From an uncultured Geobacter sp. (GTDB lineage: Bacteria > Myxococcota_A > UBA9160 > JADFDR01), in contig CAYRID010000004.1 of the NCBI GenBank assembly GCA_964424225.1, positions 1 to 53,949 on the forward strand: DNA of 53,949 nt, given 5' to 3'. A program made the translations under genes and the position numbers. Of this stretch, positions 3,191 to 26,809 are shown in pieces; the first letter of the stretch is position 1; the number at the start of each line of letters is the position of its first letter. The notes beneath the pieces are model-generated. The model did not search any database. It was given only the letters and a program-made list of their open reading frames with translations, and was not told the origin of the DNA.

Positions 3191-3230
3191 GGATGGACTT
3201 TCTTTGCCTCAATGGCCAAGTTACACGAGT

Positions 3231-3998
3231 CTATGTTTTGGACGTGTCTCGAGAATGTGTCGCGTGCGACGTAGTTCGGGTGCGAAATCCGAACCAAAAC
3301 ACTGCACCGGTGACGAGCAAAAAGATGGCAATCCACTGTGCTTGCGAAAGGCCAGCGACTCGAGGGTTGAGCCGCAAAATTTCAACAAAGAAACGACCGA
3401 GGCCGTTGAGCATCATGTATTCGCCAAAAAGAAACGGACTTTTTTCGCGCCTCTTCCAGAGGTAAGCAAAAACGAGGAATAGCCAGAAGCTTTCATAGAG
3501 CTGAGTCGGGTGGACGGGGACATCGATCGGTGGTGCTCCTTGCGGAAAGGCGACACCCCACGGCAAATCGGTCTCGCGCCCATAATCGTCTCCAACGAGA
3601 AAGCAGCCGATTCGGCCGAAGGCTTGTCCCATGGCCATGGCGGGCGCGGCCGCTTGCGACAATGTAAAGAGAGGGATTTTATGGATCCGCGCGCCGAGGC
3701 AGCTCGAGAAAAAGCCACCAATTAAGCCACCGTAGAAGGTAAATCCGGCACGTTGCCAAAACAGTTCCCAGAACGGGCCTTCGCCGCGCAGCGAAAAATC
3801 CGTTGCGTAATAGATTTTTGCGCCGAGCAAGCCGCCCAGAATGGCGTAGAGCATGATCGTGGTGGCGTGGTCGGGGTCGATGCCTTTTTCCTGGAAGAGC
3901 CTTGCGGCGAAGTGCGTGCCCGCCAAGAAGCCGATCGCCACCATGATGCCAAAGGTGCTGACCGAGAAATTTCCGATTTCAAAGAGGATCGGATACAT
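3231..3998 (-). CDS. lgt: Prolipoprotein diacylglyceryl transferase
   Basis: MYPILF N-terminus, FYGGL, GRIGCF and HPTQLYE motifs; multi-TM protein. Confidence 0.9.
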   Translation of the reverse strand: MYPILFEIGNFSVSTFGIMVAIGFLAGTHFAARLFQEKGIDPDHATTIMLYAILGGLLGAKIYYATDFSLRGEGPFWELFWQRAGFTFYGGLIGGFFSSCLGARIHKIPLFTLSQAAAPAMAMGQAFGRIGCFLVGDDYGRETDLPWGVAFPQGAPPIDVPVHPTQLYESFWLFLVFAYLWKRREKSPFLFGEYMMLNGLGRFFVEILRLNPRVAGLSQAQWIAIFLLVTGAVFWFGFRTRTTSHATHSRDTSKT

Positions 3999-4829
3999 GG
4001 TTGCTCCAGACCGCAGCCCAATCTCGGGCCGCGAAGTACGGGCAGCCTACGCAAAGCGGGGTTTTGGAGCAAGCGCTGCGGGGCCCTTGCACGCCAAATA
4101 TTTGCGTCGTCAAAGCGCGCGCAGAGGAGGGGGGGCGGCCTCAGCGCATGGCTGGGCGACTCCGCAAGCGAGATTGCGATTCTCCAGGTTTTGTTCGCAG
4201 TGAAAATCGATACAAAATTTCATGTAACACAAATATGAGTAATCTATTTCTTCGGATATTCGCTCTTGGAGTCGCGTTCCATCTTGCCCAAAATCGAATG
4301 AGCAGAATCTCGCCTGGATTGTTTCTTGCTGGAAAATTTCCGCAGCGAAGTTTGAAGATCATGCAGTGATCACTCAAAAAACACGTTGGCTCGAAAAAAA
4401 GTGAAAACGTTTCTGCTTTCAATGGGTTAGTCGGTTAATTGCAAAAAAGGGTAACACCGAGAAGCGTTTTAAGCGCTTTTTGCCTTCCCAAGGGGTGCAG
4501 AAATGAGTTTTTGACTGGCTCGGTAGTGAAGCTGGTGTAAGGTGTGCGCGCGAAAAAAGGATATCGCTGCAAAATAGATTCATTTATGATGCGCTTCATC
4601 CAAGAGGCGTGATTCGAGTCACGTACAAGCGCAGCAGAAGTTTTCGTGAACGTGGAGAGAGCAGTCGAGCTATTGCAATCAGTGTTCATGCAAAGCAGCA
4701 ATGTCGAACTCTGCGAAGAAGGTCGAATCCAAAATCGAATTTGAGGCCAGTGATCCGCGCAAGTGTTGGTAAAGCACGAAGCGAGATCGCAAAGCACCAA
4801 GAGATGGCGAGACGATCGAGGAGAACGCA

Positions 4830-5408
4830 ATGACGAAGCGCAAACTTGTAATTTTGGCTCTGTTATCCGTGTTTTTAGTGAGTGCTCCGCAAGCCCCGCA
4901 AGTTGAATCCTGGGATTCCGAGTTGGGTTGGACGAAGGCGCAAGCGCCAGAGTCTCCGACTGTGATTGATGCGAATTCGATTGCTCGCATTATGCAAAAT
5001 GCCAATCCTTTACTTTCAAGCGGCGAAGGCCTGCGAATTGGGGCTGCCGTGGTGCGCTACAGCCAGGAATACAATCTCAATCCCGAACTCGTTTCTGCCG
5101 TCATCCTCGTTGAAAGTGGTGCACGCCCCTGGGTCGAGAGCCCCAAAGGTGCTTTGGGTCTGATGCAAGTGATGCCCTATATGCGGACGCAAATGGCGCG
5201 CGAAGGCAAAAACATGGCGGGCAATCTCATGACGATTGAAACCAATATTGAGGCGGGCTGTTGGATTCTCGCCGACAATATCCGGCGCCTGGGCGAAGAA
5301 AACGGTGTCTCCTCCTACTTTTGGGGCAGTGAAATCCGCAGCGTGTCCTATCTCAACAAAGTGCGCCTCGCGCAGTCTAAAGTTCGCGCGCACCATCTCG
5401 AGTTCTAA
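4830..5408 (+). CDS. Secreted lytic transglycosylase (SLT domain)
   Basis: Signal-peptide-like N-terminus, catalytic motif ILVES, GALGLMQVMP, NIEAG; SD GAGGAG upstream. Confidence 0.85.
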   Translation: MTKRKLVILALLSVFLVSAPQAPQVESWDSELGWTKAQAPESPTVIDANSIARIMQNANPLLSSGEGLRIGAAVVRYSQEYNLNPELVSAVILVESGARPWVESPKGALGLMQVMPYMRTQMAREGKNMAGNLMTIETNIEAGCWILADNIRRLGEENGVSSYFWGSEIRSVSYLNKVRLAQSKVRAHHLEF

Positions 5409-6312: not shown

Positions 6313-6809
6313 GTTCTCAAAAACTGACGCATTTGGATGCACAAGGTCGCGCGCAGATGGTCGATGTGGGCGAGAAGGCTGTGACGTCGCGCGAGGCCAT
6401 TGCGCGGGGCGAGGTGCGCATGGCACCGCAGACCTTGCGCATGATCACTGACGGTACGAATCCGAAGGGTGACGTGTTTGCGGTGGCGCGTTTGGCAGGG
6501 ATTCAGGCGGCAAAGCGTACGGCAGATTGGATTCCGCTCGCACATCCGCTGGCGCTTGATCAAGTGACGGTGACGCTCACGGCAGATGAAAAAAATTCGC
6601 GAGTTTTGATCGAAGCGTGCGCGCGCGTCCAGGCGCGCACGGGTGTGGAGATGGAAGCACTGGTGGCGGTGTCGGCGGCAAGCCTTGCGATCTACGACAT
6701 GTGCAAAGCTGTCGATCGCGCGATGACAATCGATGCCGTACGCCTCGTGAGTAAGACAGGCGGTAAGAGCGGGTCTTGGTTGCGTGCAGGCGAGGAAGAC
6801 GACGCGTGA
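6309..6809 (+). CDS. moaC: Cyclic pyranopterin monophosphate synthase MoaC
   Basis: LTHLD...[39 protein letters not shown]. Start set at ATG 6309, which overlaps the hydrolase stop. Confidence 0.95.
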
Positions 6810-8080
6810 TGAAGCAGTGTCACAAAATTGCGTTATCCATTTTGTTTTGCATTGTGTTAGGAATGGCGTTTCCAACACGGGCTGGTGTTGTCGATCTTGC
6901 ACCGCACGGCGAAACGTGGTGGGGCGTACGCGATTTGGTTGCCCCGTTTGCGTCGATCTTCGTTGGTCCGATGTACTACTACGGTAAGCGCGAACTCAGG
7001 ATCGATACCGTGCCGCCTGCAGGCACACTCGATTTGTTCTACATCCGAGCCTCATTTCAAAAGCGCTACGAGCGCACACAAGCACCCGCGACGGTAATTT
7101 TGCCTCGCCGAATTGATGCAAGTCCGCGTGATGTGGTGTTGATTCGCGCTTCGCTTGAAGGTTACCGCGAGCAGGAACGCACCGTTCAGATTGCATCGCG
7201 CGAGGACAAAGTACAAATCAACTTCGAACCGCTGCCGAACACCTTGCGCGCCGTAGCACATACTTACCTTGCAGGACGCGCGTCACTTACATTTCTTACG
7301 GATGAAGTCTTAAATATTCGAATTCAAAAAGACGCCACCGAAGGCTACACCGTGTTTTTGAATGCCACAGCCAAGGCGCCCGGCGTTGGCGAAGCGTTAC
7401 AAAGCTTGCGAAGTGCATGGATCGATTCTTTGCGCTCGCAACAACTTGGCGAAGATTTGTTGATTCGCATCAAACTTTCCGAGATTGCGAAAAAAGCCAA
7501 TCTCGAACTTCGCTCGCGCCAAGCGCATGACCCGTATCGCGATATTCAAACTTATACGCTGGATTTGATTGCCCCCGACGAGCAAGCGATGATTGCAGCG
7601 GTCAAGGTTGCTCTAATCAAAGTAACGCCGATTGATGTTACAGATTGCTCTTTTGCGTTCGAGGATGGCCTACACGAGGGGTTGACGCTTGATGCGCTGA
7701 ATCGCGCACTCGCTCCGCGTGGCGAATTTACAGATCCGTATTTGCAAGCTGCAATGAAGCGACTCGGAGAAGTGTCGCCAGGTAAAGTGATTACGCTGCA
7801 GGACGGTACGCAACTTAGTCCCGATAATGTACTCGAACTCACACTGGCGATGAGTCAACCGGCGCAAGTGCGTGGCTACCTCGCCTTTTTGCGTAGCTTT
7901 TCACGGCACCTTGAAGGTCAGAATGAATGGCGATCGACGCTTCGCGGTTTGATTGCACCCGAAATCGGCGCTACGACCTTCAACGAGATTCTCGATCGTG
8001 CGACGGCGCGTGAGCGCAGCTGCATGCTGCGCAAAATCGGTGCTGCAGCACCCGAACTGCAACCTTTCATCGTGCGTTAA
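6809..8080 (+). CDS. Secreted hypothetical protein (about 423 aa)
   Basis: ATG overlaps the moaC stop (TGATG). Signal-peptide-like N-terminus ending in PTRA; long open frame with no recognised family. Confidence 0.75.
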   Translation: MKQCHKIALSILFCIVLGMAFPTRAGVVDLAPHGETWWGVRDLVAPFASIFVGPMYYYGKRELRIDTVPPAGTLDLFYIRASFQKRYERTQAPATVILPRRIDASPRDVVLIRASLEGYREQERTVQIASREDKVQINFEPLPNTLRAVAHTYLAGRASLTFLTDEVLNIRIQKDATEGYTVFLNATAKAPGVGEALQSLRSAWIDSLRSQQLGEDLLIRIKLSEIAKKANLELRSRQAHDPYRDIQTYTLDLIAPDEQAMIAAVKVALIKVTPIDVTDCSFAFEDGLHEGLTLDALNRALAPRGEFTDPYLQAAMKRLGEVSPGKVITLQDGTQLSPDNVLELTLAMSQPAQVRGYLAFLRSFSRHLEGQNEWRSTLRGLIAPEIGATTFNEILDRATARERSCMLRKIGAAAPELQPFIVR

Positions 8081-10502: not shown

Positions 10503-12896
10503 ATGTCGAGAGTGTCGATGCGCGCTAGTTCGTCTCAAACGAAAGCGAAGGGAGAAACTTCGCGTCACTCGCTTGCGGCGCACGCGACTTCGGAAGCAGT
10601 GGGAGTCCTGCTCGTCTTTTTGGCGTTGCTCGCAGGGCTTGCGCTTGCAAGCTACAACCCCGCAGATCCGCTCTGGACGTGGGTGAGTGTTTCAAATCGC
10701 GCCGGAATCGTGGGTGCCCATCTCGCCGCAATTTTGTTTCACACGGTGGGCGCGGGTTCGATGGTGATCGTCGGTGTGCTCGCCACGATGGGCATCCGTC
10801 TTCTCATGGGCCGAGATATACCCGATTTGGTGTCGCGTTTTTGGCTGGGTAGCGCTGCGCTCTTGCTTGCAATCGCTACGTTGCCGGTCGTGCTCGCGAA
10901 ATTTGCACCGGAGACATTTTCGGCCGCACAAGGTGGTTGGCTTGGCCAAAATGCAGCGGCCTTGCAAGTGAAGCTCGTGAGCGAGTGGGGCAGTTTCCTT
11001 TTTAATTTTGGCTGTTTCTTTTTTGGCGTCTTTGCGCTGCTTGGCATTTCGAGCCAAGACGCGCTTACAAAAATCGGGCATGCGACACGTATCAGCGCGA
11101 GTCGCACCATGGCGGCATTGGTGTTTTTAGCACGATCTTTTTCGGTGTTACACCAAAAAGTGCAGCAGGTAGTGCAGGGTCTTGAAGTTTGGCGTGAGCG
11201 CCGTGCGCGGCTGGCGCGCGTTGCAGAGGCGCGGGAGAAAGAACAACTCTCGTATGCTGCGGAAGCTTCGGCGCCGAAGTTCGACACGGAGACTGCCGAA
11301 GCACGCAAGGCGGTGCCTGCATCGGTGCCGCAAATTCAAATCGTCGATCACGCTGCCGAGGCCAAGGCTCCCAAAAAACCCAAGCAGGTTACGTTCACTT
11401 TTTCGGATCACAAATCAGGAATTGCGTACGAGTTGCCCAACCTCGACTTGTTCCAATCACCACCCCCTGCGACGCGTGCCGTCGATCGCGAGAGCTTGAT
11501 CATGCGCTCGCGTATTGTCGAAAAGAAGCTCCGCGACTTCGGTGTCGAGGGACGCGTGGAAACCGTGCATCCTGGCCCCGTCATTACGATGTATGAGTTC
11601 GAGCCGGCACCCGGTGTGAAAGTAAACAAAATTGTGTCGCTATCCGATGACTTGGCCTTGGCGCTGCGCGCGCTTTCGATTCGAATCGTGGCACCGATTC
11701 CGGGGAAATCGGTCGTCGGGATCGAAGTGCCGAATGTGGATCGTGAGACGGTGTATATTCGTGAGGGCTTTGAGTCGGAGACTTTTCGCGACGCCGATGC
11801 CGCATTGCCGCTTTTTATGGGAAAAAATATTTTTGGTGAATCGGTCACGGCGGATCTTGCGAAGATGCCGCATTTGCTCGTGGCCGGCGCTACGGGCACC
11901 GGTAAGAGTGTTTTCCTAAATTCGCTGATTTGTTCGCTGCTTTGCCGTCGTACTCCAGACGAATTGAAGCTCTTGCTGGTCGATCCCAAGCTGCTTGAAC
12001 TTTCCATTTATGAGGATATTCCGCACCTCATTGCAGAAGTGGTCACGAATCCCAAGCGCGCCGCCGCAGCCCTACACGGAATTGTGATAAAAATGGAAGA
12101 GCGTTATCGCAAAATGGCGGCGCTGGGCGTGCGCAACATTCAGCAATACAACGAGCGCGTCGACCAAGAACTCAAGGCCGGCAACAAAACATTCAAGTTG
12201 AAAGGCAAGCCTGGAGAAGAGGACGAAGAGGCTGCGTTCGAGCGCATTCCGTACATTGTTGTCGTGATCGATGAGCTTGCCGACTTGATGATGGTCTCGG
12301 CGCGCGATGTGGAAGAAGCGTTGCAACGCTTGGCGCAGATGGCACGGGCCGCAGGCATTCATCTCGTGTTGGCGACGCAGCGTCCAAGCGTCGATGTGCT
12401 GACGGGCGTAATCAAAGCGAATTTTCCGTCGCGCGTTGCGTTTCAAGTGTCGTCGAAAATCGATTCACGCACGATCTTGGATCAAAACGGAGCGGAGCAG
12501 TTGCTTGGTCAAGGCGACATGCTTTTCTTGCCGCCGGGCACATCCAAAATTCAACGCATCCACGGTTCATTCATTTCGGAGAAGGAAGTCAAGAAGCTCG
12601 TCGAATTCTTGATCAAGCAAGGCAAGCCGGACTACGACGCAGAAATTATGAATGCGAAGCCGGCTTCGGAAGTGCGCGCCGAGCCGGGTGAGGAGGCCGA
12701 CGAACTTTACGATCAAGCGATCGCGATCGTCGCGGAGTCGCGCAATGCTTCGATTTCGCATTTGCAGCGCCGCTTGAAAGTCGGCTACAACCGCGCAGCG
12801 CGAATGATCGAACAAATGGAAGCCGAAGGCGTCATAGGTCCGCAGGTCGGCAGTAAATCGCGCGAAGTTTTCGTACAAGATCATCACGCTGACTAA
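10503..12896 (+). CDS. ftsK: DNA translocase FtsK/SpoIIIE
   Basis: N-terminal TM helices, PHLLVAGATGTGKS (Walker A), IDELADLM, ARAAGIHLVLATQRPS, gamma domain LQRRLKVGYNRAAR. Start uncertain (frame open from 10359). Confidence 0.95.
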   Translation: MSRVSMRASSSQTKAKGETSRHSLAAHATSEAVGVLLVFLALLAGLALASYNPADPLWTWVSVSNRAGIVGAHLAAILFHTVGAGSMVIVGVLATMGIRLLMGRDIPDLVSRFWLGSAALLLAIATLPVVLAKFAPETFSAAQGGWLGQNAAALQVKLVSEWGSFLFNFGCFFFGVFALLGISSQDALTKIGHATRISASRTMAALVFLARSFSVLHQKVQQVVQGLEVWRERRARLARVAEAREKEQLSYAAEASAPKFDTETAEARKAVPASVPQIQIVDHAAEAKAPKKPKQVTFTFSDHKSGIAYELPNLDLFQSPPPATRAVDRESLIMRSRIVEKKLRDFGVEGRVETVHPGPVITMYEFEPAPGVKVNKIVSLSDDLALALRALSIRIVAPIPGKSVVGIEVPNVDRETVYIREGFESETFRDADAALPLFMGKNIFGESVTADLAKMPHLLVAGATGTGKSVFLNSLICSLLCRRTPDELKLLLVDPKLLELSIYEDIPHLIAEVVTNPKRAAAALHGIVIKMEERYRKMAALGVRNIQQYNERVDQELKAGNKTFKLKGKPGEEDEEAAFERIPYIVVVIDELADLMMVSARDVEEALQRLAQMARAAGIHLVLATQRPSVDVLTGVIKANFPSRVAFQVSSKIDSRTILDQNGAEQLLGQGDMLFLPPGTSKIQRIHGSFISEKEVKKLVEFLIKQGKPDYDAEIMNAKPASEVRAEPGEEADELYDQAIAIVAESRNASISHLQRRLKVGYNRAARMIEQMEAEGVIGPQVGSKSREVFVQDHHAD

Positions 12897-13634: not shown

Positions 13635-13672
13635 TTTTTACGTCACCTTCGGACGCAATTTTTGTTCTACTC

Positions 13673-13713
13673 TGCAACGGTTGTTGCATTTTTTGCGGAG
13701 TACTCCGTTTTTT
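13673..13713 (+). terminator. Two tandem intrinsic-terminator-like hairpins after lolA
   Basis: tgcaac-ggtt-gttgca (13673-13688) plus T6, then palindrome cggagtactccg (13696-13707) plus T6. Confidence 0.45.
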
Positions 13714-14168
13714 GTCATGCAGAATACAAATTTCGGCATAACGCCATTTTTCGTCTTTTTCGAAACGTCAGTTTTTCAACCTAGACGTCAACTTTACGGC
13801 AATTTATTGGCATCTTTGCTCCATCAATTTGCAATGGGAAGGCAGTTCAGCGCCCAACACATTGTTCTAAAACTTTTTTTGAATTGAATAGTAGTTTTTG
13901 AAACGCTTCTTACAAAGCTTGGTTCCGCTTTCTGTGCTTGCTCGGCAGGGAAAAGGTTTTTGCGTGTTCAATCCACTTCAAAATGAAGCAAGAAACTCAC
14001 TGTGCGCGTTCGTTTTATACAATTGTTTCGACGGTGATTTCAGTTGCGGCATGCGCCTTGCAGCGTGCAACAATGCAGGTGCTCTCACCTGGAAGATGTA
14101 GGCAATAACGCTTGGCATCATCGTTCGAGGCGAGCACGAGCAGTCGGGCCACTCGACGGGAGGCAGCA

Positions 14169-16013
14169 ATGAGTGAATCGGATTCGCAGTCGGATGCAAA
14201 AGGTTTTGTGCGCGATGTTATGCGGCGAATTTCGACGACTACCGAGGGAGAGGCTTTGCAGTCGGATGCTGGTCGCGAACAGGCGGCGAGCGGCTTGTTG
14301 CGCGCGGAGATCGAAGGGATCCAAGAGGCCGTGCGCTTTTACGGCGGCGATTCCATCGAAGTGCGCCGCAAGTTGAATCGCATCCTTGCAGAAACAGAGT
14401 CAATTCGGCGCCGATACGAAATCGGTCGTGATCGACTGGTCGATGCCGAGCGTCAGAATGAAAAACTCGTCGCGGCATTGCACGAAGCGAAACAACAGAT
14501 CGAGGCCTTACGCGAAGAAGTCGACAAGCTTTGCACGCCGCCAAATACCTATGGAATTTTCGTGAAGGCGAATGACGACGCCACGGTTGAAATCATGGCC
14601 GACGGACGTCCGATGCGTGTGCACTTACATCCGAGTGTGAACGTGGAGGAATTGCGCGAGGGCCAATACGTCGTGCTCAATGAAGCCTTCAATGTGATCG
14701 AGCCGGGAACGTTTACGAAGCGCGGTGAGATTGCGAAGGTCGTCGACGTTTCGCTTGAGGATCGACGCGTGATCGTGGTGGGACATGCCGACGAAGAGAA
14801 AGTGCTTAGCCTCTCCAAGCCGCTCTTTGAAGAGAAAGTTCGCGTCGGCGATCACTTGCTCTACGATCCTCGTTCGCAATTCGCTTTCGAGAAAATGCCG
14901 AAGTCTGCCGTCGAAGAAGTGAACCTCGAAGAGGTGCCGGATGTTTCGTACGACGACATTGGTGGTTTGGGTGAACAAATTGAAGTGTTGCGCAATGCAA
15001 TCGAGTTGCCGTATCTACACCCGGAAGTGTTCCGTGAGTACAAGCTTTCGCCGCCCAAGGGTATTTTGCTCTACGGTCCGCCAGGCTGCGGCAAGACGAT
15101 GATTGCGAAGGCGGTGGCCAATGCACTTTCGAAGAGTATCGAAGAGCGCACGGGCAAGCCGACGCCGGCGTACTTCCTGAATGTGAAAGGTCCGGAGTTG
15201 CTCAACAAGTACGTCGGTGAGACCGAGCACAAACTGCGCGAGGTGTTTCGCAAGGCGCGCGAGAAGGCGAGCGAAGATGTTCCGGTCGTGATCTTCTTCG
15301 ATGAGATGGATTCACTCTTTCGCATGCGCGGATCGGGTGTGTCATCGGACATGGAAGCGACGGTGGTGGCGCAGTTTTTGTCGGAAATCGACGGTGTTGA
15401 ATCACTCAAAAATGTGATCGTGATTGGAGCGAGTAATCGCCAAGACTTGATTGATCCGGCGGTGCTTCGCCCTGGTCGCCTCGATTTGAAGGTGAAGGTA
15501 ATGCGCCCGGATGCGACGGCTGCGCGTGAAATTTTCATGAAGTATTTGACGACGGATCTTCCGTTTCATGCGTCGGCGTTGCAGAAATACGGCGGTGATC
15601 TTGAGAAGGTTGCCAAGGGCTTGGTAGAAGACACGATCGAAGTGATGTATGCCGAGGGTGAAGAGAATAAATTCCTTGAAGTCACCTACGCCAAGGGCGA
15701 GCGCGAGATCTTTTATTTCAAAGATTTTGCGAGTGGGGCCATGATTGAAAACATCGTGGCACGTGCAAAGAAGAAAGCAGTGCGACGCTTTATTGAGCAC
15801 GGCGAAGTGGGTGTGAAGTTGAGCGATTTGCTTGAATCCGTGCGCGAAGAGTTCAAAGAGAACGAAGATTTGCCGAACACGACGAATCCGGACGACTGGG
15901 CGCGGATCTCGGGCAAGAAGGGCGAGCGCATCATCAATGTGCGCACTTTGATGCAGAAGGTGAGCCGCAACGAGCGAAGCATCGAAAATATTTCGTCGGG
16001 TCAGTACCTCTAG
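14169..16013 (+). CDS. arc: Proteasome-associated AAA+ ATPase ARC/Mpa
   Basis: Coiled coil ending in TPP, OB domains, Walker A GPPGCGKT, LNVKGPELLNKYVGETE, Walker B IFFDEMD, SRH ASNRQDLIDPAVLRPGRLD, C-terminal proteasome-gating motif GQYL. SD GGGAGG before ATG 14169. Confidence 0.96.
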   Translation: MSESDSQSDAKGFVRDVMRRISTTTEGEALQSDAGREQAASGLLRAEIEGIQEAVRFYGGDSIEVRRKLNRILAETESIRRRYEIGRDRLVDAERQNEKLVAALHEAKQQIEALREEVDKLCTPPNTYGIFVKANDDATVEIMADGRPMRVHLHPSVNVEELREGQYVVLNEAFNVIEPGTFTKRGEIAKVVDVSLEDRRVIVVGHADEEKVLSLSKPLFEEKVRVGDHLLYDPRSQFAFEKMPKSAVEEVNLEEVPDVSYDDIGGLGEQIEVLRNAIELPYLHPEVFREYKLSPPKGILLYGPPGCGKTMIAKAVANALSKSIEERTGKPTPAYFLNVKGPELLNKYVGETEHKLREVFRKAREKASEDVPVVIFFDEMDSLFRMRGSGVSSDMEATVVAQFLSEIDGVESLKNVIVIGASNRQDLIDPAVLRPGRLDLKVKVMRPDATAAREIFMKYLTTDLPFHASALQKYGGDLEKVAKGLVEDTIEVMYAEGEENKFLEVTYAKGEREIFYFKDFASGAMIENIVARAKKKAVRRFIEHGEVGVKLSDLLESVREEFKENEDLPNTTNPDDWARISGKKGERIINVRTLMQKVSRNERSIENISSGQYL

Positions 16014-16045
16014 GAGGATCGCGGACGCGCAAAGCTGGAGTGGAA

Positions 16046-17530
16046 ATGTCGATTCCGAAAGTGATGGGAACAGAGATCGAATTTGGAATTACCGTCAAGA
16101 ACGATCGTGACTTTGATCCCATATCCAGTTGTGTGTTACTCGTAAATGCGTATCGCGAAGATCATATCGGAAAAATTCTCTGGGATTACGATCAAGAAGA
16201 CCCGCTGGTCGACGCGCGCGGCTTCCAAGTCGACGGCGAGAAGTATACGCCGAATCAGCAAGAGAATATTGCGCGCAACAAAACACTCGTGAACGGTGCG
16301 CGCTATTACGTCGATCACGCACATCCTGAATATTCTTGCCCGGAAGTGACGAACGCGCGCGATTTGGTGATCCATGAAAAAGCGGGTGAGCGCATTATCG
16401 AGCTAAGCCGTCGCGAAGCCAATCGCATGCTCGACCCCAATTCGCCAATTTTGATCTACAAGAACAACAGCGATCGCAAAGGCAATAGTTATGGATCGCA
16501 CGAGAACTATCTCGTCGATCGCAAAATTGCGTTTAAGCAAATCGTTGAACATCTCATGCCATTCTTTGTGTCGCGCCAAATTTTCGCCGGTGCAGGAAAG
16601 GTGGGTAGCGAAAATCGAGCGGAGCCTTGCGACTATCAAATTTCGCAACGTGCCGATTTTTTTGAAGTCGAAGTTGCGCTCGACACGATGGTGAAGCGAC
16701 CGATCATCAATACGCGTGACGAGCCGCATGCGGATCGTGAAAAATACCGTCGCTTGCATGTGATCGTGGGCGATTCGAATATGAGCGAGTACACGATTTA
16801 CCTACGCAATGGTGTGACGGCGTTGATTTTGTCGATGATTGAAGACGGTGCAATCAAGCGCGATCTCGCGCTGCGTGATCCAGTGCAGGCAATTCGTCGA
16901 ATTTCTCATGACCCAAGCTGCAAGCGCAAGGTATTGCTCGAGCGCGGCGTCGAACTTACAGCGGTTGAGATTCAGCAAGAATACTTCGAGCTTGCGCTTG
17001 CGTATGCAGCGTCGCACGAACTTGATGTTGTGACGCGCGATGTTTTGCAAAAATGGGGTGAAGTGCTTGAGGCGTTAGCGCGTGATCCAATGGAATTGAG
17101 CGCGAAGATTGATTGGGTCATCAAAAAAGCGATGATCGAAAGTTTTATGCAGAAAAAAAATCTCGATTGGGATTCTCCACAGGTGAGTTTGCTTGATCTG
17201 CAATATCACGATGTTCGCCCCGACAAGGGTTTATACTTTTTGCTTGAGCGCCAAGGGCGTGTTGAGCGCATCGTGACCGACGATGAAATCATGGCGGCAA
17301 TTCACAACGCACCGGAAGACACGCGTGCGTATTTTCGTGGTGAGTGCTTGAAGCGATACGGTTCGCACGTTTTTGGCGTAAACTGGGATTCGATTTCGTT
17401 TGGAGTCGGCGACGAGCCGATCAAACGTGTCATGATGGTGGAACCTTTGAAAGGCACCAAAGCGCATGTCGAAGAACTCTTTCGTTCTTCACCGAAAGTT
17501 TCAGATCTTGTAAAAAATCTGCGGGCGTAA
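16046..17530 (+). CDS. dop: Depupylase / deamidase Dop
   Basis: MGTEIEFG, Dop-loop WDYDQEDPLVDARGF, Dop-type YVDHAHPEYS, SYGSHENY, NTRDEPHAD, RLHVIVGD, EPLKGTKAHV. Confidence 0.92.
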   Translation: MSIPKVMGTEIEFGITVKNDRDFDPISSCVLLVNAYREDHIGKILWDYDQEDPLVDARGFQVDGEKYTPNQQENIARNKTLVNGARYYVDHAHPEYSCPEVTNARDLVIHEKAGERIIELSRREANRMLDPNSPILIYKNNSDRKGNSYGSHENYLVDRKIAFKQIVEHLMPFFVSRQIFAGAGKVGSENRAEPCDYQISQRADFFEVEVALDTMVKRPIINTRDEPHADREKYRRLHVIVGDSNMSEYTIYLRNGVTALILSMIEDGAIKRDLALRDPVQAIRRISHDPSCKRKVLLERGVELTAVEIQQEYFELALAYAASHELDVVTRDVLQKWGEVLEALARDPMELSAKIDWVIKKAMIESFMQKKNLDWDSPQVSLLDLQYHDVRPDKGLYFLLERQGRVERIVTDDEIMAAIHNAPEDTRAYFRGECLKRYGSHVFGVNWDSISFGVGDEPIKRVMMVEPLKGTKAHVEELFRSSPKVSDLVKNLRA

Positions 17531-17551
17531 TGCTCGGAGAGGAGAAAGACC

Positions 17552-17833
17552 ATGAAGTGGATCGAAAAAAAACCAACTCGTGAGGAAGTCACCGATTTGC
17601 GTTTTGGCACTTTGGGCATTGTGGCGGCGGCGGAAGGCGGACAAGAACAAAAGAAGCGCAGTGGCGGCGGCGAGGGCTCCGATGCTGACAAGAGTGACGG
17701 TGGGCAGAAGCTCAAAAAGAAAGGCGATGAACTCAAAGAAGAGATGGATGATCTTGTTAGTGAAATTGACGATTTGCTCGAAGAGAATGCCGAAGAGTTT
17801 GTCAAGAATTACGTGCAGCGCGGCGGGGAATAA
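17552..17833 (+). CDS. pup: Prokaryotic ubiquitin-like protein Pup (93 aa, C-terminal GGE)
   Basis: C-terminus EMDDLVSEIDDLLEENAEEFVKNYVQRGGE closely matches actinobacterial Pup (M. tuberculosis ...DEIDDVLEENAEDFVRAYVQKGGQ). Strong SD GGAGAGGAG; sits between dop and prcB. Confidence 0.93.
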   Translation: MKWIEKKPTREEVTDLRFGTLGIVAAAEGGQEQKKRSGGGEGSDADKSDGGQKLKKKGDELKEEMDDLVSEIDDLLEENAEEFVKNYVQRGGE

Positions 17834-17934
17834 CGAGGCGTTTTTAGTCAACACATTTTTGCGCTTAACATCAGAAAGTGTTGTCTGAAAAAATTAAGTA
17901 GACGAGTGAGCGATCAAAAGGGAAGGGAGAGGCG

Positions 17935-18732
17935 GTGTATTTCGATTTTGGGGGCAAGTACGCGGGTTCGAGTTTCTTTGAGCTTCTCGACCAAGATTTT
18001 CCGCATCTCAAAGTTGATTTTCAACGCTTGCTCAAGCAAAGCAGCGGCGAAATTTCTGTGCCGCACGGTACGACGGTACTTGGACTCAAATATCGCGAGG
18101 GTGTGCTCGTTGCCGGAGATCGCCTGGCGACCGAGGGACACCGCGTTGCGTCGCGCGATGTGCAAAAGGTTTACAGCACTGACGAATTTTCCTTGATGGC
18201 CATCGCGGGTGCGGCGGGCCCGTGTATCGAGATGGCGCGCTTGCTGCGTGTCGAGCTTGAGCATTATGAAAAGATCGAAGGTGCTCCGCTCGAGCTTGAC
18301 GGAAAAGCCAACAAACTTTCACAGATGATCCGCGCGAATTTACCGGCGGCGATGCAAGGCTTGGTCGTTGTGCCAATTTTTGCGGGCTATGACCAGCGAC
18401 GCGCGACGGGTCGTGTTTGGAAGTACGACATCACCGGCGGTCGTTATGAAGAAACCGAGTACGAGACTTCGGGTTCAGGTGGTTTGTTTGCCAAGGATTC
18501 GCTCAAGAAGTCGTACAAACCCGGTGCGACGCAAGAGGAAGCCATCGCGATGGCGATCGAAGCTTTAACCGATGCGGCCGATGATGATCGCGCTACCGGC
18601 GGTGTCGACTTGCAACGCGGTATTTATCCAATTTTGAAAACGTGCTCGGCGCAAGGTTGCAAAAATGTGTCGGAAGAAATGATTGCGCAGATTTATCGTG
18701 ATTTGATGAGTCGCCGCGCCGGAGGACGCTAA
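17935..18732 (+). CDS. prcB: 20S proteasome beta subunit (45-aa propeptide, catalytic Thr1 at 18070)
   Basis: Propeptide with GSSFFELL, cleavage site PHG|TTVLG, AGDRLATEG, IAGAAG, GSGGLFA, TGGVDLQRGIYP. Confidence 0.95.
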   Translation: MYFDFGGKYAGSSFFELLDQDFPHLKVDFQRLLKQSSGEISVPHGTTVLGLKYREGVLVAGDRLATEGHRVASRDVQKVYSTDEFSLMAIAGAAGPCIEMARLLRVELEHYEKIEGAPLELDGKANKLSQMIRANLPAAMQGLVVVPIFAGYDQRRATGRVWKYDITGGRYEETEYETSGSGGLFAKDSLKKSYKPGATQEEAIAMAIEALTDAADDDRATGGVDLQRGIYPILKTCSAQGCKNVSEEMIAQIYRDLMSRRAGGR

Positions 18733-19433
18733 TGTCGGTCCCCTTTTATGTTTCTCCCGAACAACTCATGGCCGACAAGGCCGAATATGCGCGCAAAGGC
18801 ATTGCGCGCGGCAAGTCGATCGTGGCTTTGGAGTACGCAGCAGGCATCGCGCTGGTTGCGGAAAACCGCTCGGCACATCTTTCGAAAATTGGAGAAATTT
18901 ACGATCGCTTGGCGTTCGCGGGCGTTGGCCGTTTTAGCGAGTTCGATCAGCTACGAAAAATCGGAGTCCGTTACGCCGACGTGAAAGGTTATGGCTATAG
19001 CCGTGAAGACGTGCGTGGCAAAGCGCTTGCGAATGCTTATTCGCAAGCGATTGGTGATGTGTTTACGCGTGAGATGAAGCCGCTCGAAGTGGAGATCGTC
19101 GTTGCGGAAGTTGGCACCGACGAGCTTGCTGGGCAGGAAGAAAATTCTTTGTATCGAATTCAGTTTGACGGAAGCATCGTTGACCACGACGGCTACTGCG
19201 TGATTGGCGGCAACGTCGAGAATATCGAGCAACACTTGCGTGCGAATTATCGCGAGCATCTCTCCCTTGGGGAGGCGATCAAAATGGCGAAGGCGGCGCT
19301 TGAGTGTGCGAGTGCAAATCATGAAGCGATCGCACCGCAACATCTCGAAATTTGTATTTTGGATCGCGAGCGTGCGGGGCGAAAGTTTCGCCGTCTGACG
19401 GCCGATGAGATAAGCAATATTCTGGGCTCCTGA
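18732..19433 (+). CDS. prcA: 20S proteasome alpha subunit
   Basis: MSVPFYVSPEQLMADKAEYARKGIARGKS, KIGEIYDR, YSREDVRG, KPLEVE, LDRER...RKFRRL; ATG overlaps the prcB stop (TAATG). Confidence 0.95.
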   Translation: MSVPFYVSPEQLMADKAEYARKGIARGKSIVALEYAAGIALVAENRSAHLSKIGEIYDRLAFAGVGRFSEFDQLRKIGVRYADVKGYGYSREDVRGKALANAYSQAIGDVFTREMKPLEVEIVVAEVGTDELAGQEENSLYRIQFDGSIVDHDGYCVIGGNVENIEQHLRANYREHLSLGEAIKMAKAALECASANHEAIAPQHLEICILDRERAGRKFRRLTADEISNILGS

Positions 19434-19508
19434 GGTGCACACCCGGCTGCGTAGTTTGGGTGCGCGTTGTTACCAAGCCCACAAATCAGGCCGCAAAGAA
19501 GAAAGACC

Positions 19509-20915
19509 GTGCAGAAGCGAATTTTCGGTATTGAAACAGAGTTCGGCATCATCTTTACGCCCGAAGGTCGCAAAACGCTTCCGGTCGAGAAGGCGATACG
19601 GTTTCTTTTCGAAAAGCTAATTACGACCGAACACTTCTTAAACGTGTTTCTTGAAAACGGAGCGCGTTTTTATCAAGACACCGGTTGCCATCCTGAGTAC
19701 GCGACACCCGAGTGCGCTTCTCCGCGTCAATTAATTGTGTATGACAAAGCCGGGGAACGAATTCTCGAAGATTTACAGGATTATGCGGAAGAAAAAATTC
19801 GCGAAGAGCGGATTCCAGGCAAGCTCTCCATTTTTAAGAACAATACGGATTTCGTTGGAAACAGTTACGGGTGTCACGAAAACTATCTCGTGGATCGTGA
19901 TGTCGATTTTTATTATCTCGCTGAACAATTGATTCCGTTTCTCGTGACACGTCAAATTTATAGTGGTGCAGGAAAGGTATTTCAGACACAAGAAGGTGTA
20001 CATTACTGTATCAGTCAGCGTGCGCAGCATGTGTATCAAAAAATCTCGGGCACAACGACGAACGATCGCTCGATCATCAATACGCGCGACGAGCCGCATG
20101 CCGATCGTGAAAAATATCGCCGCTTGCATGTAATCGTCGGAGATTCGAACATGAGCGAGTTTACGAATTTCCTGAAGGTTGCAGCCTGTACGGTCGTGTT
20201 GCAGATGATTGAAGACAACTTCATCAACAAAGACTTCACGCTGCGAAACCCCGTGAAGGCGATCAAGGACATTTCGTACGATACGACTTGCAAGCGCAAG
20301 CTTCGCCTCGATAACGGCAAGGAGTATTCGCCGCTCGACATTCAGTTTGAATATCTTGAGATGGCGCAAAAATACATTGACCAATATCCCGTGAGCGATG
20401 AATTGCGCGACGGCATTGCCAAGTGGCAGTACGTGATGGACTGCTTGGCGGATGATCCCAATAAACTCGATCGCGAGATCGATTGGGTGATTAAGCGCAA
20501 AATGATCGAACGTTTTCTTGATGCACAATCGGCGAGCTGGAGCGATCCGCGCTCGTTCATGCTTGATTTGCAGTATCACGATATTCGTTTGAACCGCGGG
20601 CTTTACTACTTGCTCGAACGTCGCGGTGCTGTTGAGCGCGTGCTCAATGACGAAGAGGTGCTCAAGGCAAAAACGGAACCGCCGCACAACACGCGTGCCA
20701 AGATGCGCGGAGAGTTCATTAAACTTGCACGCCAAAACAACATTCAATACGACCTCGATTGGTCGAACATTCGGCTTGGCAATCTGCTCAACGTGCGCGT
20801 GATTTGCAATAACCCGTTTGAAACGGACACCGAAAAAGTTGCAGAACTCGTGCGGACGATTCAAAAAACCAACTTGCGCAAGACCAGTCTCTCAAAATTG
20901 GTGATTCAGTCTTAG
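19509..20915 (+). CDS. pafA: Pup-protein ligase PafA
   Basis: KRIFGIETEFG, PafA-type NGARFYQDTGCHPEYATPEC, KNNTD...SYGCHENY, SQRAQH, NTRDEPHAD, TRAKMRGEFI. GTG start at 19509. Confidence 0.93.
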   Translation: MQKRIFGIETEFGIIFTPEGRKTLPVEKAIRFLFEKLITTEHFLNVFLENGARFYQDTGCHPEYATPECASPRQLIVYDKAGERILEDLQDYAEEKIREERIPGKLSIFKNNTDFVGNSYGCHENYLVDRDVDFYYLAEQLIPFLVTRQIYSGAGKVFQTQEGVHYCISQRAQHVYQKISGTTTNDRSIINTRDEPHADREKYRRLHVIVGDSNMSEFTNFLKVAACTVVLQMIEDNFINKDFTLRNPVKAIKDISYDTTCKRKLRLDNGKEYSPLDIQFEYLEMAQKYIDQYPVSDELRDGIAKWQYVMDCLADDPNKLDREIDWVIKRKMIERFLDAQSASWSDPRSFMLDLQYHDIRLNRGLYYLLERRGAVERVLNDEEVLKAKTEPPHNTRAKMRGEFIKLARQNNIQYDLDWSNIRLGNLLNVRVICNNPFETDTEKVAELVRTIQKTNLRKTSLSKLVIQS

Positions 20916-23669: not shown

Positions 23670-25019
23670 TTATGCCGATAGAATTTTTGCGACGTCGATC
23701 TCTACAAGGGCCTCTGCATTGCCGAGGATTTCGCGTGCATCGGCTTCGGGCGCAGAGAGATCGCAGAGAATCGGTGGATCAACGCGCTGACCCGCAGCAT
23801 CTTGGACAATCCACACGGTCGGACTCGTCGCATCGAGATCGTTGAGTTTGGCGATGATGGCAATTTCGTCCGATGTCAAACGCACGAAATCGCCGACGGG
23901 ATAAGCACCGAGCATGGCGACGAAACTGGCCACAGTTTCGGGCGCATAGGCTTTGCCAACAAGGCGTCGAATAATGCGGATTGCATCACCGGGATGGCGC
24001 GATTTTTGATAAGGGCGCGTAGTCGTTAGCGCATCGTAGCAATCGGCAAGAGAGATGATTTTGCTCAAAGGATGCGGAGTTTCTCCACTACACAATTTTG
24101 GATAACCTGTTCCATCGAAGCGAATATGATGATAGAGCACGATTTTGCAGGTTTCGTCATCGACGTTGCCAAGTTCACGCAAGAGTTCTTCGCTCAGTAC
24201 GGGATGTTTTTGCATGATTTCGAGTTCTTCCGGGGTGAGCGCGCCGGGCTTTTTGATGATTTTTTCGGCGGTGCGGATTTTTCCGATGTCGTGCAATAAA
24301 CCGGCGAGCGCAACACGATGCAAGTCTTCACCGGTGATTCCCAAATGACGTGCGTAGGCCAGCGCGAAGACCGCTGTTGTGATCGAGTGCGAATAAGTGT
24401 AGGGGTCATATTTTTTTAGCAGCGTGAGTCCGAAAAGTGCGGCGGGTGAAGTGAGTATCATTTCGCGCATGGTGCTCAAAAGCTGCGTTGCATTTCCGGA
24501 AGATGCGATTTTGCCGGAACGGAGTTGCGAGAGGAGATCGAAAATTTCACCGAGTAATTCTTCGTAAGCAATGGCAACCAAAGCACGCACGTCGCCTTCG
24601 TCGGGAATTTTTTCACGAAATATGACGTGCGGCATGGCGTTTTGCTGTGCGGCGTCGAGGAGAGAAATCTTCTGTACTTGATCTTGCGAGGCGAGCGCGC
24701 GCACCAAGCGTTCTAACTCGGAGAACGTAACACCCGGCTGAAAAATGATGGCCTCGACATTGGACTGACGTATAGAAGTGTAGACCTGGGGAAATTCTTC
24801 ATTGGCTTCGTAGAAAGGAATTTCGTCAAATACAAGTACATCGTCGAATAAGCCCAGTACGATACGATCGCGCTCTTTGAGCATTGCGGCGAGTGCTGTT
24901 GCGAGGTGTACGATTGGTGTGTGAATTGCGGGATGTCCGGCCTCGTAAAGTTTACAGGTGCGCACGGCACTTCGAAGATGACGCAAAATAATGTCGAGCC
25001 GCTGCCGAGTTTCGCTCAT
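23670..25019 (-). CDS. HD-GYP domain cyclic-dinucleotide phosphodiesterase with uncharacterised N-terminal module
   Basis: YTYSHS, LLHDIGK, HHIRFDGTGYP, ADCYDALTTTRPY; metal-binding motifs look intact. SD-less ATG overlaps the upstream stop. Confidence 0.88.
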   Translation of the reverse strand: MSETRQRLDIILRHLRSAVRTCKLYEAGHPAIHTPIVHLATALAAMLKERDRIVLGLFDDVLVFDEIPFYEANEEFPQVYTSIRQSNVEAIIFQPGVTFSELERLVRALASQDQVQKISLLDAAQQNAMPHVIFREKIPDEGDVRALVAIAYEELLGEIFDLLSQLRSGKIASSGNATQLLSTMREMILTSPAALFGLTLLKKYDPYTYSHSITTAVFALAYARHLGITGEDLHRVALAGLLHDIGKIRTAEKIIKKPGALTPEELEIMQKHPVLSEELLRELGNVDDETCKIVLYHHIRFDGTGYPKLCSGETPHPLSKIISLADCYDALTTTRPYQKSRHPGDAIRIIRRLVGKAYAPETVASFVAMLGAYPVGDFVRLTSDEIAIIAKLNDLDATSPTVWIVQDAAGQRVDPPILCDLSAPEADAREILGNAEALVEIDVAKILSA

Positions 25020-26809
25020 GGGACAGCACGGCCTTGTGCACGTTTGCGCAATATGTGCTGAGCCTCACGCTTAAAAATGGGATCTTCTCCCTCGGCAAAG
25101 CGCAGAAGTAAATTTCGCGTTTCATTGCCTGGGATATTTGCGAGTGCCTGTAAGGCTACGAGTTTGAGTTCCGTCATCTTTTGGCGTTTAAAGAAACTTC
25201 GCTGTTCCAAAACGAAGAGCAGCGCGGGGACGGCTTCCAGCAGAGCGATTTGTCCGAGCGCACGAACTGCTTCTTGGGCAAGTTCGAAGTCACCACGTTG
25301 TGTCGCTTGTTGCGCGATGTCTGCAAGTGGTTGCAAGGCATAAGTGGATTGTGTTTTGCCAAGCCAGTAGGCAGCCTGCGTTGCGACTGCGCTTGTTTCG
25401 TGCAAAAGAGCGTGAATCAAAGCGCCAATTGCCGTCGAATCGCCGATGAGTACGAGTGCCTTTGAGGCTTCTTTGGCGAGAGAGGGATCGCTGCTGGTCA
25501 TGAGCTTACGCAGTGTCGAAACGGCTGCGGGATTTTGGATTTCTCCGGCGAGGCGTGTAGCAACACGAGCTGCGCGCAAATTGTTGCCCTGCATCGTGCG
25601 CAGCAAATGAGGTGTGGCTCGCTCGCCGATGGCAATTAAAATGCCTGCAACTTGGCTGCGGTGATTGGGGTCTTGCAGCGTTTCGATGCTGCGCAGCAGG
25701 GCGGGAACAGCATGCTCAGCGAGTTGCAATAAAATTTGTGTCGCACGAATGCGTAGGCTGGTATCGGCCGAGCAAGCACGCGCAATCAAGTCAGCGAGCT
25801 GTGGTCCAGAAGCGAAAGAAATTAAGGCTTCGCTAGCACATCGACTCTTTTTTGTGTCATTTTCCGAGTCTTGAGCAGCTTGCGTGGAAAGTGCCAAGAT
25901 CGTTTGATAGGCCGCATCGGAATCGCCATCTTCGAAAAGCAGCTTGGCCGTCGCGATGGCTTCGGCCGCAAGACATTCATAGGTAGAATCTTCTTTTGCC
26001 TTTTCGAACTGGGACAGCGTGTTTTTTAGGCTGGCTCTGCGTTGATCGCGCAAGGCCTGTTTGGCCGGAGTGAGATTTGGAGGGGGTGCAGCAGACAGCG
26101 AGTTGGTCGATCCAACGCTTTCAAGTGTTGGCGTATCGAGCGTTTCGGGTTCGAGCAGTGCGGCGAGAAGTAGGGCGGGATCAGCATGACCAATTTCAGC
26201 GTTGATTTCGGCGCAGGAAGGAGAATCCATGTCGAGCAAATCGAGTACGTCGCTTTGCTCTTCTTGCGCCGCTGTGGCGGTGTGGGCCGGACGCCCCAGT
26301 GTGATTTCGACGCCGTGTTCCGCCGCAGTGCGAATGCACGCTTGCCGCTTTGCATGTGTCGTTGCTGCGAACTCGGTGTCGGAGAATATTTCGAGCAGAG
26401 CTTGGAAGCCGTCTTGTGTCATGGCCGGAGTGACGCCAAGAGCACAAACGCCGTACGCCGTAAATTCACGCGCGAGTTCGTCGGAGTGCGCGCTTGTAAT
26501 CGGAGATGAATTGACTAAGCGCAACATTTTTCCGTGTAATACCGCTTCGAGAGTGCCATGCCGATCGAGATCGGCGCGCCAAGTACGAAAGCTGCGATGG
26601 AGGATGGCTTGCAGCTGCGGATGCGTGCGTGGATAAAACCGGTAGCCCTTGATTGCGCGCGCGAGTTCGACCCAAAGCGTCGTGACGTCGCTTGCGGTGC
26701 GAGTTTTGGGCAAGGGAAGAATTGTAGGGTTGGCCGCCATGGTCACTGTTTCGACTTTCACTTTTGCGATGCGCGCGTAGTGTGAAAACTCTGCAAGCAA
26801 ACGTTTCAT
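25016..26809 (-). CDS. HEAT / PBS-lyase repeat protein with uncharacterised N-terminal module
   Basis: C-terminal half is repeated helical units such as ASKALVLIG...AIGALIHAL, AAYWLGK, AVRALGQIA, ALQALANI. Start uncertain (26809 or 26740). Confidence 0.78.
   Translation of the reverse strand: MKRLLAEFSHYARIAKVKVETVTMAANPTILPLPKTRTASDVTTLWVELARAIKGYRFYPRTHPQLQAILHRSFRTWRADLDRHGTLEAVLHGKMLRLVNSSPITSAHSDELAREFTAYGVCALGVTPAMTQDGFQALLEIFSDTEFAATTHAKRQACIRTAAEHGVEITLGRPAHTATAAQEEQSDVLDLLDMDSPSCAEINAEIGHADPALLLAALLEPETLDTPTLESVGSTNSLSAAPPPNLTPAKQALRDQRRASLKNTLSQFEKAKEDSTYECLAAEAIATAKLLFEDGDSDAAYQTILALSTQAAQDSENDTKKSRCASEALISFASGPQLADLIARACSADTSLRIRATQILLQLAEHAVPALLRSIETLQDPNHRSQVAGILIAIGERATPHLLRTMQGNNLRAARVATRLAGEIQNPAAVSTLRKLMTSSDPSLAKEASKALVLIGDSTAIGALIHALLHETSAVATQAAYWLGKTQSTYALQPLADIAQQATQRGDFELAQEAVRALGQIALLEAVPALLFVLEQRSFFKRQKMTELKLVALQALANIPGNETRNLLLRFAEGEDPIFKREAQHILRKRAQGRAVP

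Follow-up and report, generated by a model that had tools for sequence, protein, structure and literature searches.

Organization of the Pup-proteasome locus

The stretch of DNA analyzed here (the window; 53,949 nt, to which all positions refer) encodes a complete Pup-proteasome system at 14169-20915 on the + strand. Six co-oriented, intact open reading frames (ORFs) encode ARC/Mpa, Dop, Pup, PrcB, PrcA, and PafA, in the order and at the coordinates given in the original prediction, which had been made from the sequence alone. All of the motifs named in that prediction (Walker A/B and GQYL of ARC, HAHPEY of Dop, GGE of Pup, G|T of PrcB, and GxExE of PafA) were read in the sequence or in alignments with PDB entries. 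Most accounts treat pupylation and the bacterial proteasome as particular to Actinobacteria (and Nitrospirae), with only "very sporadic" examples in other groups. The analyses described below make it very probable that the window carries a functional chromosomal Pup-proteasome, passed on by vertical descent within a large diderm clade of uncultured Myxococcota. The parts of the locus are as follows.

13635..14168, + strand: non-coding spacer between lolA and arc (~535 bp); two hairpins resembling terminators (13673-13688 and 13695-13708) immediately follow lolA
14169..16013, + strand: ARC/Mpa, proteasomal AAA+ ATPase, 614 amino acids (aa); ATG start with GGGAGG ahead of it; TIGR03689
16046..17530, + strand: Dop, depupylase/deamidase, 494 aa; TIGR03688
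17552..17833, + strand: Pup, 93 aa, C terminus YVQRGGE; PF05639 and TIGR03687
17935..18732, + strand: PrcB, 20S proteasome beta subunit, 265 aa; TIGR03690
18732..19433, + strand: PrcA, 20S proteasome alpha subunit, 233 aa; TIGR03691
19509..20915, + strand: PafA-type Pup ligase of the Gram-negative subclade, 468 aa; GTG start; TIGR03686 is the best NCBIfam match

As the start codon of prcA overlaps the stop codon of prcB (18732) and the other spacers are short, the arrangement fits a single operon. A strong Shine-Dalgarno sequence, GGAGAGGAGAAAG, stands ahead of the pup ATG at 17552. The longest ORF at pafA begins at 19467 (482 aa), upstream of the GTG at 19509. Independent gene callers chose the same gene lengths for all six genes, and an assembly deposited at NCBI contains identical ARC, PafA, and RecA sequences.

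The promoter of the operon presumably lies within the spacer at 13635..14168. Sites found in a scan for sigma-70 promoters and terminators between 13.5 and 21.2 kb, including the two hairpins, were not enriched over shuffled sequences. Likewise, nucleotide conservation was not found in the lolA-arc, pup-prcB, and pafA-mreB spacers of 80 related loci, and we therefore propose neither a conserved cis element nor a small RNA. A scan against Rfam returned a tRNA-Gln at 42904-42974 as its only match, with none inside or close to the operon. The exact 54-mer at the 3' end of pup had no match among species-representative genomes; the source genome is thus not a GTDB representative.

Family assignment of ARC, Dop, PrcB, and PrcA

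Proteins were assigned to families by the curated equivalog cut-offs of NCBIfam and by Pfam domain searches. Five of the six proteins exceed the curated NCBIfam cut-offs, with the exception of PafA. As the E values range from 1e-60 to 1e-220, chance matches are excluded.

ARC scores 732 bits with TIGR03689 (cut-off, 505) and has the architecture of a coiled coil followed by two OB domains and an AAA module (Pfam Prot_ATP_ID_OB_N, Prot_ATP_ID_OB_C, and AAA). It aligns with residues 50-609 of Mycobacterium tuberculosis Mpa (658 bits, ~58% identity) through the terminal GQYL, and it carries the Walker A motif GPPGCGKT, the Walker B motif FFDEMD, and the pore loop NKYVGET. The C-terminal GQYL is kept in 63 of 63 related loci.

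Dop scores 582 bits with TIGR03688 (cut-off, 492) and aligns end to end with Acidothermus Dop (4B0R; 518 bits), including the catalytic Asp (YVDHAHPEY) and the Dop loop. The latter (WDYDQEDPLVDARG...) aligns with the Acidothermus loop, and its motif WDYDQENPLADARG is conserved clade-wide. At the positions listed by Hecht et al. (2020; PMC7947786) in their Table 1, Dop is Dop-type at 13 (4, 9-13, 15, 25-28, 30, and 33) and PafA-type at none.

PrcB scores 310 bits with TIGR03690 (cut-off, 192) and is ~57% identical to Rhodococcus beta1. Mature Rhodococcus and M. tuberculosis beta subunits align from ORF residue 46, which places the processing site at PHG|TTV behind a propeptide of ~45 residues, and Thr1, Asp17, and Lys33, as counted from the sequence, are present. 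Among the related loci, the G|TT site was matched 62 times, 58 of them with the full HG|TTV. PrcA scores 304 bits with TIGR03691 (cut-off, 139) and aligns over its full length, from residue 1, with M. tuberculosis PrcA (218 bits, ~48% identity). It keeps the equivalent of Lys52, within HLSKIGE, which we take to be part of the pocket that receives GQYL.

The Pup modifier

The modifier passes both curated Pup models (PF05639, 65 bits versus a cut-off of 27; TIGR03687, 52.9 bits versus 41.45), and the entire M. tuberculosis Pup (3M9D and 7PX9; 64 residues) can be aligned with its residues 30-93. The statement in the original prediction that this is a true Pup and not UBact was thus borne out. As residues 30-93 cover all of M. 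tuberculosis Pup, residues 1-29 constitute an N-terminal extension. The extension lies at 17552-17638, and a semiconserved motif resembling [LF]P[IL][YF].AA[ED]S precedes the core in the related loci.

Pup length is bimodal across 75 related species, with 66-69 aa in 14 and 83-99 aa in ~60, the window included, so that an N-terminal extension of ~15-30 residues occurs in most species of the clade. In the long forms, a Shine-Dalgarno sequence precedes the upstream ATG, while the internal ATG, where present, has none. The last 17 residues read VLEENAEEFVKNYVQRGG[E/Q] in 75 of 75 related species; the final residue is Glu (GGE) in 46 species and Gln (GGQ) in 29. As the window Pup is encoded with GGE, the deamidase role of Dop would be dispensable in this organism and needed in many of its sisters.

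Conservation of the locus among related genomes

When six PafA peptides were used to scan genomes, one per species, at least 547 stretches encoding a relative were obtained. The counts for related loci given throughout rest on the best 80 of these, ranked on PafA. All 80 come from metagenome-assembled genomes (MAGs), encode a PafA 82-90% identical to that of the window, and are mostly labeled Myxococcota, Myxococcales, or Deltaproteobacteria (all taxonomic labels of this kind are those of the NCBI submitters); some carry evidently inconsistent labels, such as Spirochaetales or Gammaproteobacteria.

Searching these 80 loci with eleven window proteins (tblastn) recovered the order FtsK-LolA-ARC-Dop-Pup-PrcB-PrcA-PafA-MreB-YceG in essentially every locus that was long enough, and the position of the operon is kept in ~60 species-level MAGs. 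Identities to the window proteins were as follows.

PafA, 83-90%
Dop, 66-80%
ARC, 66-82%
PrcB, 52-72%
PrcA, 49-74%
MreB, 70-82%
FtsK, 50-78%
LolA, 31-53%
YceG, 41-66%

PafA is the most conserved protein of the neighborhood, in part as a selection effect, since the loci were ranked on PafA.

The same site is occupied in a distant genome, L092 (GCA_037446715.1), in which PafA is 64% and RecA 69% identical to the window proteins and flanking proteins only 20-41% (FtsK, 41%; YceG, 38%; HEAT protein, 21%). Its gene order runs from an acyltransferase gene through FtsK, LolA, inserted genes, ARC-Dop-Pup-PrcB-PrcA-PafA, YceG, RuvX and further genes to HD, HEAT, PgpA, CinA and further genes, and then RecA and PilT-like. 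Most simply, the operon would have occupied this site on the chromosome before the window lineage and L092 diverged. The Pup-proteasome is systematic, not sporadic, in this Myxococcota lineage.

Two local differences were observed in L092. Between lolA and arc, at positions 2894-4995 of that locus, lie a MiaB-like radical-SAM gene, a DksA-type zinc-finger gene, and a 79-aa ORF; at 11383-12819, mreB is absent and pafA abuts yceG.

Host and integrity of the contig

The genes surrounding the operon were identified from Pfam hits on matching contigs. Upstream lie genes for Lgt, an SLT transglycosylase, MoaC, RadC, SSB, an acyltransferase, FtsK, and LolA; downstream lie those for MreB, YceG, RuvX, an HD-domain protein, a HEAT-repeat protein, PgpA, CinA, and RecA, then a PilT-like T2SSE ATPase, AlaS, IspG, BamD/YfiO, a DegP-like protease, and Prs, and finally L25, Pth, PdxS/T, S6, L9, and DnaB. 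As LolA and BamD are encoded on the same contig, the host is diderm. The outer-membrane host proposed in the original prediction on the basis of lgt, lolA, bamD, and a pilT-like gene therefore stands, with LGT, LolA, and YfiO/BamD confirmed by Pfam and the PilT-like protein recognized as a T2SSE ATPase. The closest genomes are MAGs labeled Myxococcota or Deltaproteobacteria and neither Actinobacteria nor Nitrospirae, which agrees with the Myxococcota-like chromosome that had been proposed.

Five sequencing runs (SRR19071534, SRR12234141, SRR12234144, SRR17578869, and SRR28201393; Logan assemblies) each yielded the locus independently. The LolA-ARC junction is present in three of the five contigs and the PafA-MreB junction in all five, and the sequences are identical wherever visible. 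The GC content at third codon positions (GC3) is 0.58 in the operon and 0.57 in the flanking genes; total GC is 0.49 in dop and 0.48 in pafA, compared with a window mean of ~0.54. A chimera at the operon edges was considered and is rejected for practical purposes, as the junctions recur across these assemblies and in ~60 related species and GC3 equals that of the flanks.

Placement of PafA among phyla

The identity of PafA to its relatives was surveyed in 5.8 billion proteins clustered at 90% and 50% identity. It declines continuously from 90% to ~75% within proteins labeled Myxococcota or Deltaproteobacteria, and is 72% for a cluster with a member labeled Gemmatimonadota, 65-66% for clusters with members labeled Nitrospinota and Candidatus Entotheonellia, and 62% for Candidatus Moduliflexus flocculans. 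All of these PafA proteins fall into one 50%-identity cluster with the window PafA. The next full-length representative is from the Ilumatobacteraceae (Acidimicrobiia, Actinomycetota; 47%), while that of Dermatophilus is 40% identical. An acidimicrobial family as the closest actinobacterial match echoes an earlier proposal made for Nitrospirae (PMC3511204).

In a crude neighbor-joining tree (BLOSUM62 distances, no support values, Dop as the root, two labeled actinobacterial sequences and no Nitrospirae sequence), the Gram-negative PafA proteins form a clade separate from the two actinobacterial ones. The designation of the operon as "actinobacterial-type" thus holds for the gene architecture but not for PafA, which is 40-47% identical to the two Actinomycetota clusters and belongs to this separate Gram-negative clade. 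The best Actinomycetota PafA cluster found is only 47% identical, compared with 62-90% within the Gram-negative clade, and a recent import from Actinobacteria is therefore unlikely. An ancient transfer, in either direction, may have taken place in the ancestry of the clade and would be compatible with vertical inheritance since then.

The gene order extends to some of these other groups. The locus L091 (GCA_900174565.1), whose PafA shares a 90% cluster with a Nitrospinota-labeled protein, has the same six-gene order, and an Entotheonellia-type contig shows dop-pup-prcB-prcA-pafA, with the visible stretch beginning at dop. A third gene of the Pup_ligase family was observed in L091, at 14639-16006 on the - strand (455 aa, 54% identical to the window PafA); it lies ~3 kb downstream of the six-gene operon and adjoins redox and Fe-S genes.

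Comparison with known systems

The Pup-proteasomes of M. tuberculosis and Rhodococcus consist of the same six orthologous components in the same relative gene order. Features held in common are the GQYL tail, the Dop loop, Thr1/Asp17/Lys33, and the GhExE ATP motif, and the C-terminal helix region of Pup is nearly identical to that of M. tuberculosis (EENAE.FV..YVQ.GG). In contrast to the two actinobacterial systems, the six genes lie side by side in a diderm host, and mreB rather than pafBC follows pafA. Compared with M. tuberculosis, the window Pup is encoded with GGE and has ~29 extra N-terminal residues, and ARC is without the ~17-residue insertion in the OB region of Mpa. The alpha-loop signature of PafA also differs from that of actinobacteria, and its identity to the two labeled Actinomycetota clusters is 40-47%.

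Complete arc-dop-pup-prcB-prcA-pafA loci, as in the window, have been described from Nitrospirae (Leptospirillum) and other Gram-negative bacteria (De Mot 2007; PMC3511204; PMC7947786). The window differs from the Nitrospirae-type loci in its host phylum and in occupying a fixed chromosomal site in at least ~60 species, whereas Barandun et al. (2012; PMC3511204) describe proteasomes outside Actinobacteria as a few sporadic cases, e.g., in Nitrospirae. In Plesiocystis pacifica, a deltaproteobacterium now classed with the Myxococcota, Pup was reported by Iyer, Burroughs, and Aravind (2008; PMC2588565), and its Pup and PafA-family enzyme are the point of likeness to the window. However, the ligases of Plesiocystis and Rhodopirellula (PMC2588565) carry an insertion of four transmembrane segments and have no linked proteasome genes, while the window PafA is soluble, uninterrupted, and linked to ARC and the 20S genes. 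UBact loci (Lehmann et al. 2017) reportedly occur in Gram-negative hosts and combine homologues of Mpa, Dop, PafA, and the 20S subunits in an identical gene order; the modifier in the window is Pup.

In our literature search, no paper linking pupylation or the Pup-proteasome with Myxococcota was found, nor was experimental work on the lineage. To this extent the novelty claimed in the original prediction stands. It was nevertheless overstated, as homologues of Pup, PafA, or Dop had already been reported in deltaproteobacterial and proteobacterial drafts (Iyer 2008, PMC2588565; Hecht 2020, PMC7947786), and NCBI already labels relatives in the same 90% cluster and in neighboring clusters "Pup--protein ligase [Myxococcota bacterium]." The window locus thus reveals no new kind of system. 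Systems of this kind were known, and in this lineage they had been catalogued and not studied; what is new here is their systematic occurrence and the clade-specific variants of Pup and of the PafA and Dop alpha-loops.

The probable Pup ligase and its alpha-loop

TIGR03686 is the best-scoring family for PafA, and the Dop model gives 400 bits on the same protein; NCBI names its relatives "Pup--protein ligase" or "PafA2 family protein." The protein aligns end to end with Corynebacterium glutamicum PafA (356 bits), is without the Dop loop, has the ATP motif GIETEFG, and keeps the catalytic Asp in FYQDTGCHPEY, with one extra residue after it (D-T-G-C). Hecht et al. (2020; PMC7947786) derived experimentally ~20 positions that discriminate ligase from hydrolase. 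PafA is PafA-type at nine of these (4, 7, 10, 11, 13, 14, 25, 29, and 46), with Phe at 4 and 7, the extra residue plus Gly after the catalytic Asp, Ala-Thr, His25, Ser29, and Asp46. It is Dop-type at a single position, Pro15, and Pro at this position is compatible with ligation (Hecht 2020, PMC7947786). The two Thr residues and the Arg that are common to both enzymes are kept. An AlphaFold model (predicted local distance difference test [pLDDT], 85.4; predicted template modeling score [pTM], 0.89) has as its best structural match the PafA-Pup complex 4BJR, with a template modeling (TM) score of 0.90-0.91, compared with 0.85-0.86 for Acidothermus Dop and 0.75 for M. smegmatis Dop 9CKU.

Experiments have shown that the alpha-loop determines whether an enzyme of this family is a ligase or a hydrolase (Hecht 2020, PMC7947786). 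In the window PafA it lies at 20025-20075 (residues ~173-189) and reads HIYQKISGTTTNDRS. The form found across the clade is H[IV]YQKISGTTTNDRS, and the clade-specific segment can also be given as HVYQKISGTTTND. As the loop is near-invariant in the clade (87 of ~100 matches in protein searches, and 80 matches in translated loci), we regard it as a conserved variant and not as decay. The alpha-loop of Dop (16655-16700) likewise has a near-invariant clade form, DFFE[TV]EVALDTMVKRP, with Thr-Met where both families normally have Thr-Thr.

Proposed function and alternative explanations

Beyond the gene identities, motifs, synteny, and phylogenetic placement documented here, the biochemical steps can be proposed by orthology with the M. 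tuberculosis, Rhodococcus, Acidothermus, and Corynebacterium proteins. PafA would use ATP to phosphorylate the gamma-carboxylate of the C-terminal Glu of Pup, which as encoded (GGE) would be ready for ligation, and would then ligate the activated Pup to lysines of target proteins. Hexamers of ARC would catch Pup on their N-terminal coiled coils and thread it, together with the substrate, through the OB rings and the AAA pore, while the C-terminal GQYL would dock on the 20S alpha ring. The PrcA7-PrcB7-PrcB7-PrcA7 core would degrade the substrate at Thr1, its sites having been exposed by autocatalytic loss of the ~45-residue beta propeptide. Dop would reverse the tagging and, in the ~40% of sister species whose Pup ends in GGQ, would also deamidate Pup first. 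Judged from the sequence, every residue known as required is present and under purifying selection, and a functional, vertically inherited Pup-proteasome is very probably the right explanation of the locus.

Several observations weigh against this explanation. The TIGR03686 score of PafA, 545.4 bits for the 482-aa ORF, is 6 bits short of the cut-off of 551.3. At 10 discriminating positions (3, 5, 6, 9, 27, 28, and 30-33), most of them in the alpha-loop, PafA is of neither type; the loop differs from the actinobacterial H.WEG.SSATTRSRP at seven of nine such positions and has Gln where M. smegmatis PafA has the functionally important Glu177. In the structural model, the pLDDT of this loop is ~60-70 and its secondary structure is mixed, with no clear match to either a PafA-like helix or a Dop-like loop. 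As PafA scores below the cut-off, its alpha-loop deviates, and the model is uncertain at that point, ligation is the least secure step. Pup is threaded from its N-terminal end in M. tuberculosis, and the ~29-residue extension may sit at the end that enters first. Furthermore, the window shows no pafBC, bpa, or PAC2-like chaperone gene.

Much of this would also fit a tagging machinery that deviates from the actinobacterial model, in which PafA with its remodeled alpha-loop is not a standard ligase (having a different acceptor, being regulated, or being partly hydrolytic), or in which pupylation is mainly regulatory and not a degradation signal, the extended Pup altering engagement by ARC. The score below the cut-off, the replacement of H.WEG.SSATTRSRP by HIYQKISGTTTNDRS, the Thr-Met of the Dop alpha-loop where Thr-Thr is conserved, the extension of ~15-30 residues on Pup in most species, and the unusual conservation of PafA (83-90%, compared with 70-82% for MreB) all speak for such a deviation. 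However, several partial combinations of the discriminating residues suffice for ligase activity (Hecht 2020, PMC7947786), and PafA has the ligase-type residue at the nine positions listed above. It also keeps the two Thr residues and the Arg common to both enzymes, has no Dop loop, and finds its best fold match in PafA-Pup, while the co-conservation of a complete ARC-20S with GQYL in the same operon argues for degradation. We consider a deviant machinery improbable. A foreign origin of the operon, through an assembly or binning chimera or through recent horizontal gain from Actinobacteria or Nitrospirae, is very improbable. It would agree with the slightly low GC of dop and pafA and with a literature that favors spread of the pathway out of Actinobacteria (PMC3511204; PMC7947786), for which Hecht (2020; PMC7947786) proposed horizontal transfer. 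Yet the junctions are identical in independent assemblies from five runs, the flanks recur in ~60 species and in the distant L092, GC3 matches that of the flanks, and the best Actinomycetota PafA cluster found (Ilumatobacteraceae, 47%) lies far below the 62-90% within the Gram-negative clade. Least credible of all, to the point of being nearly negligible, is that the modifier is UBact and the locus one of the UBact systems of some Gram-negative phyla. The host is Gram-negative, and UBact loci reportedly share this gene order, which would suit UBact. The UBact modifier is reportedly not a Pup-family protein, however, whereas that of the window is recognized by both curated Pup models, can be aligned along 64 residues to M. 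tuberculosis Pup, and ends in YVQRGGE where the latter ends in YVQKGGQ.

With a functional, vertically inherited Pup-proteasome as the favored explanation, a complete system of this kind belongs to the chromosome, fixed and strongly conserved, in a large and environmentally widespread clade of uncultured diderm Myxococcota, whose habitats, to go by the MAG names, include marine water, marine sediment, and soil. With this clade, the purpose of regulated proteasomal degradation in bacteria can be addressed in another major lineage besides Actinobacteria, and the clade also supplies natural sequence variants of the PafA and Dop alpha-loop as well as a natural Pup with an extended N terminus. A broader proposal, which we advance only tentatively, is that the locus belongs to a distinct, slowly evolving "Gram-negative-type" lineage of Pup-proteasomes. 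This lineage would have its own PafA and Dop alpha-loops and an extended Pup, would be inherited vertically at one site across hundreds of Myxococcota species, and would be shared with lineages labeled Nitrospinota, Entotheonellia/Tectomicrobia, Gemmatimonadota, and Ca. Moduliflexus. In that case, the occurrence of pupylation beyond Actinobacteria would not be sporadic, and both the assumed transfer out of Actinobacteria and the PafA-based ligase mechanism would need re-examination.

Additional observations in the window

Three further features were observed outside the operon. At 23670-26809 on the - strand, a gene for an HD_5/HDOD protein (449 aa) is followed by one for a HEAT-repeat protein (597 aa); this pair has the same neighbors in the distant L092 at only 21-29% identity. 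An ORF of 423-434 aa at 6776-8080 (+ strand), between moaC and radC, has no Pfam match and is called as a gene in independent assemblies. The gene at 34437-36557 (+ strand) encodes a long form of IspG/GcpE (706 aa; GcpE plus GcpE_C).

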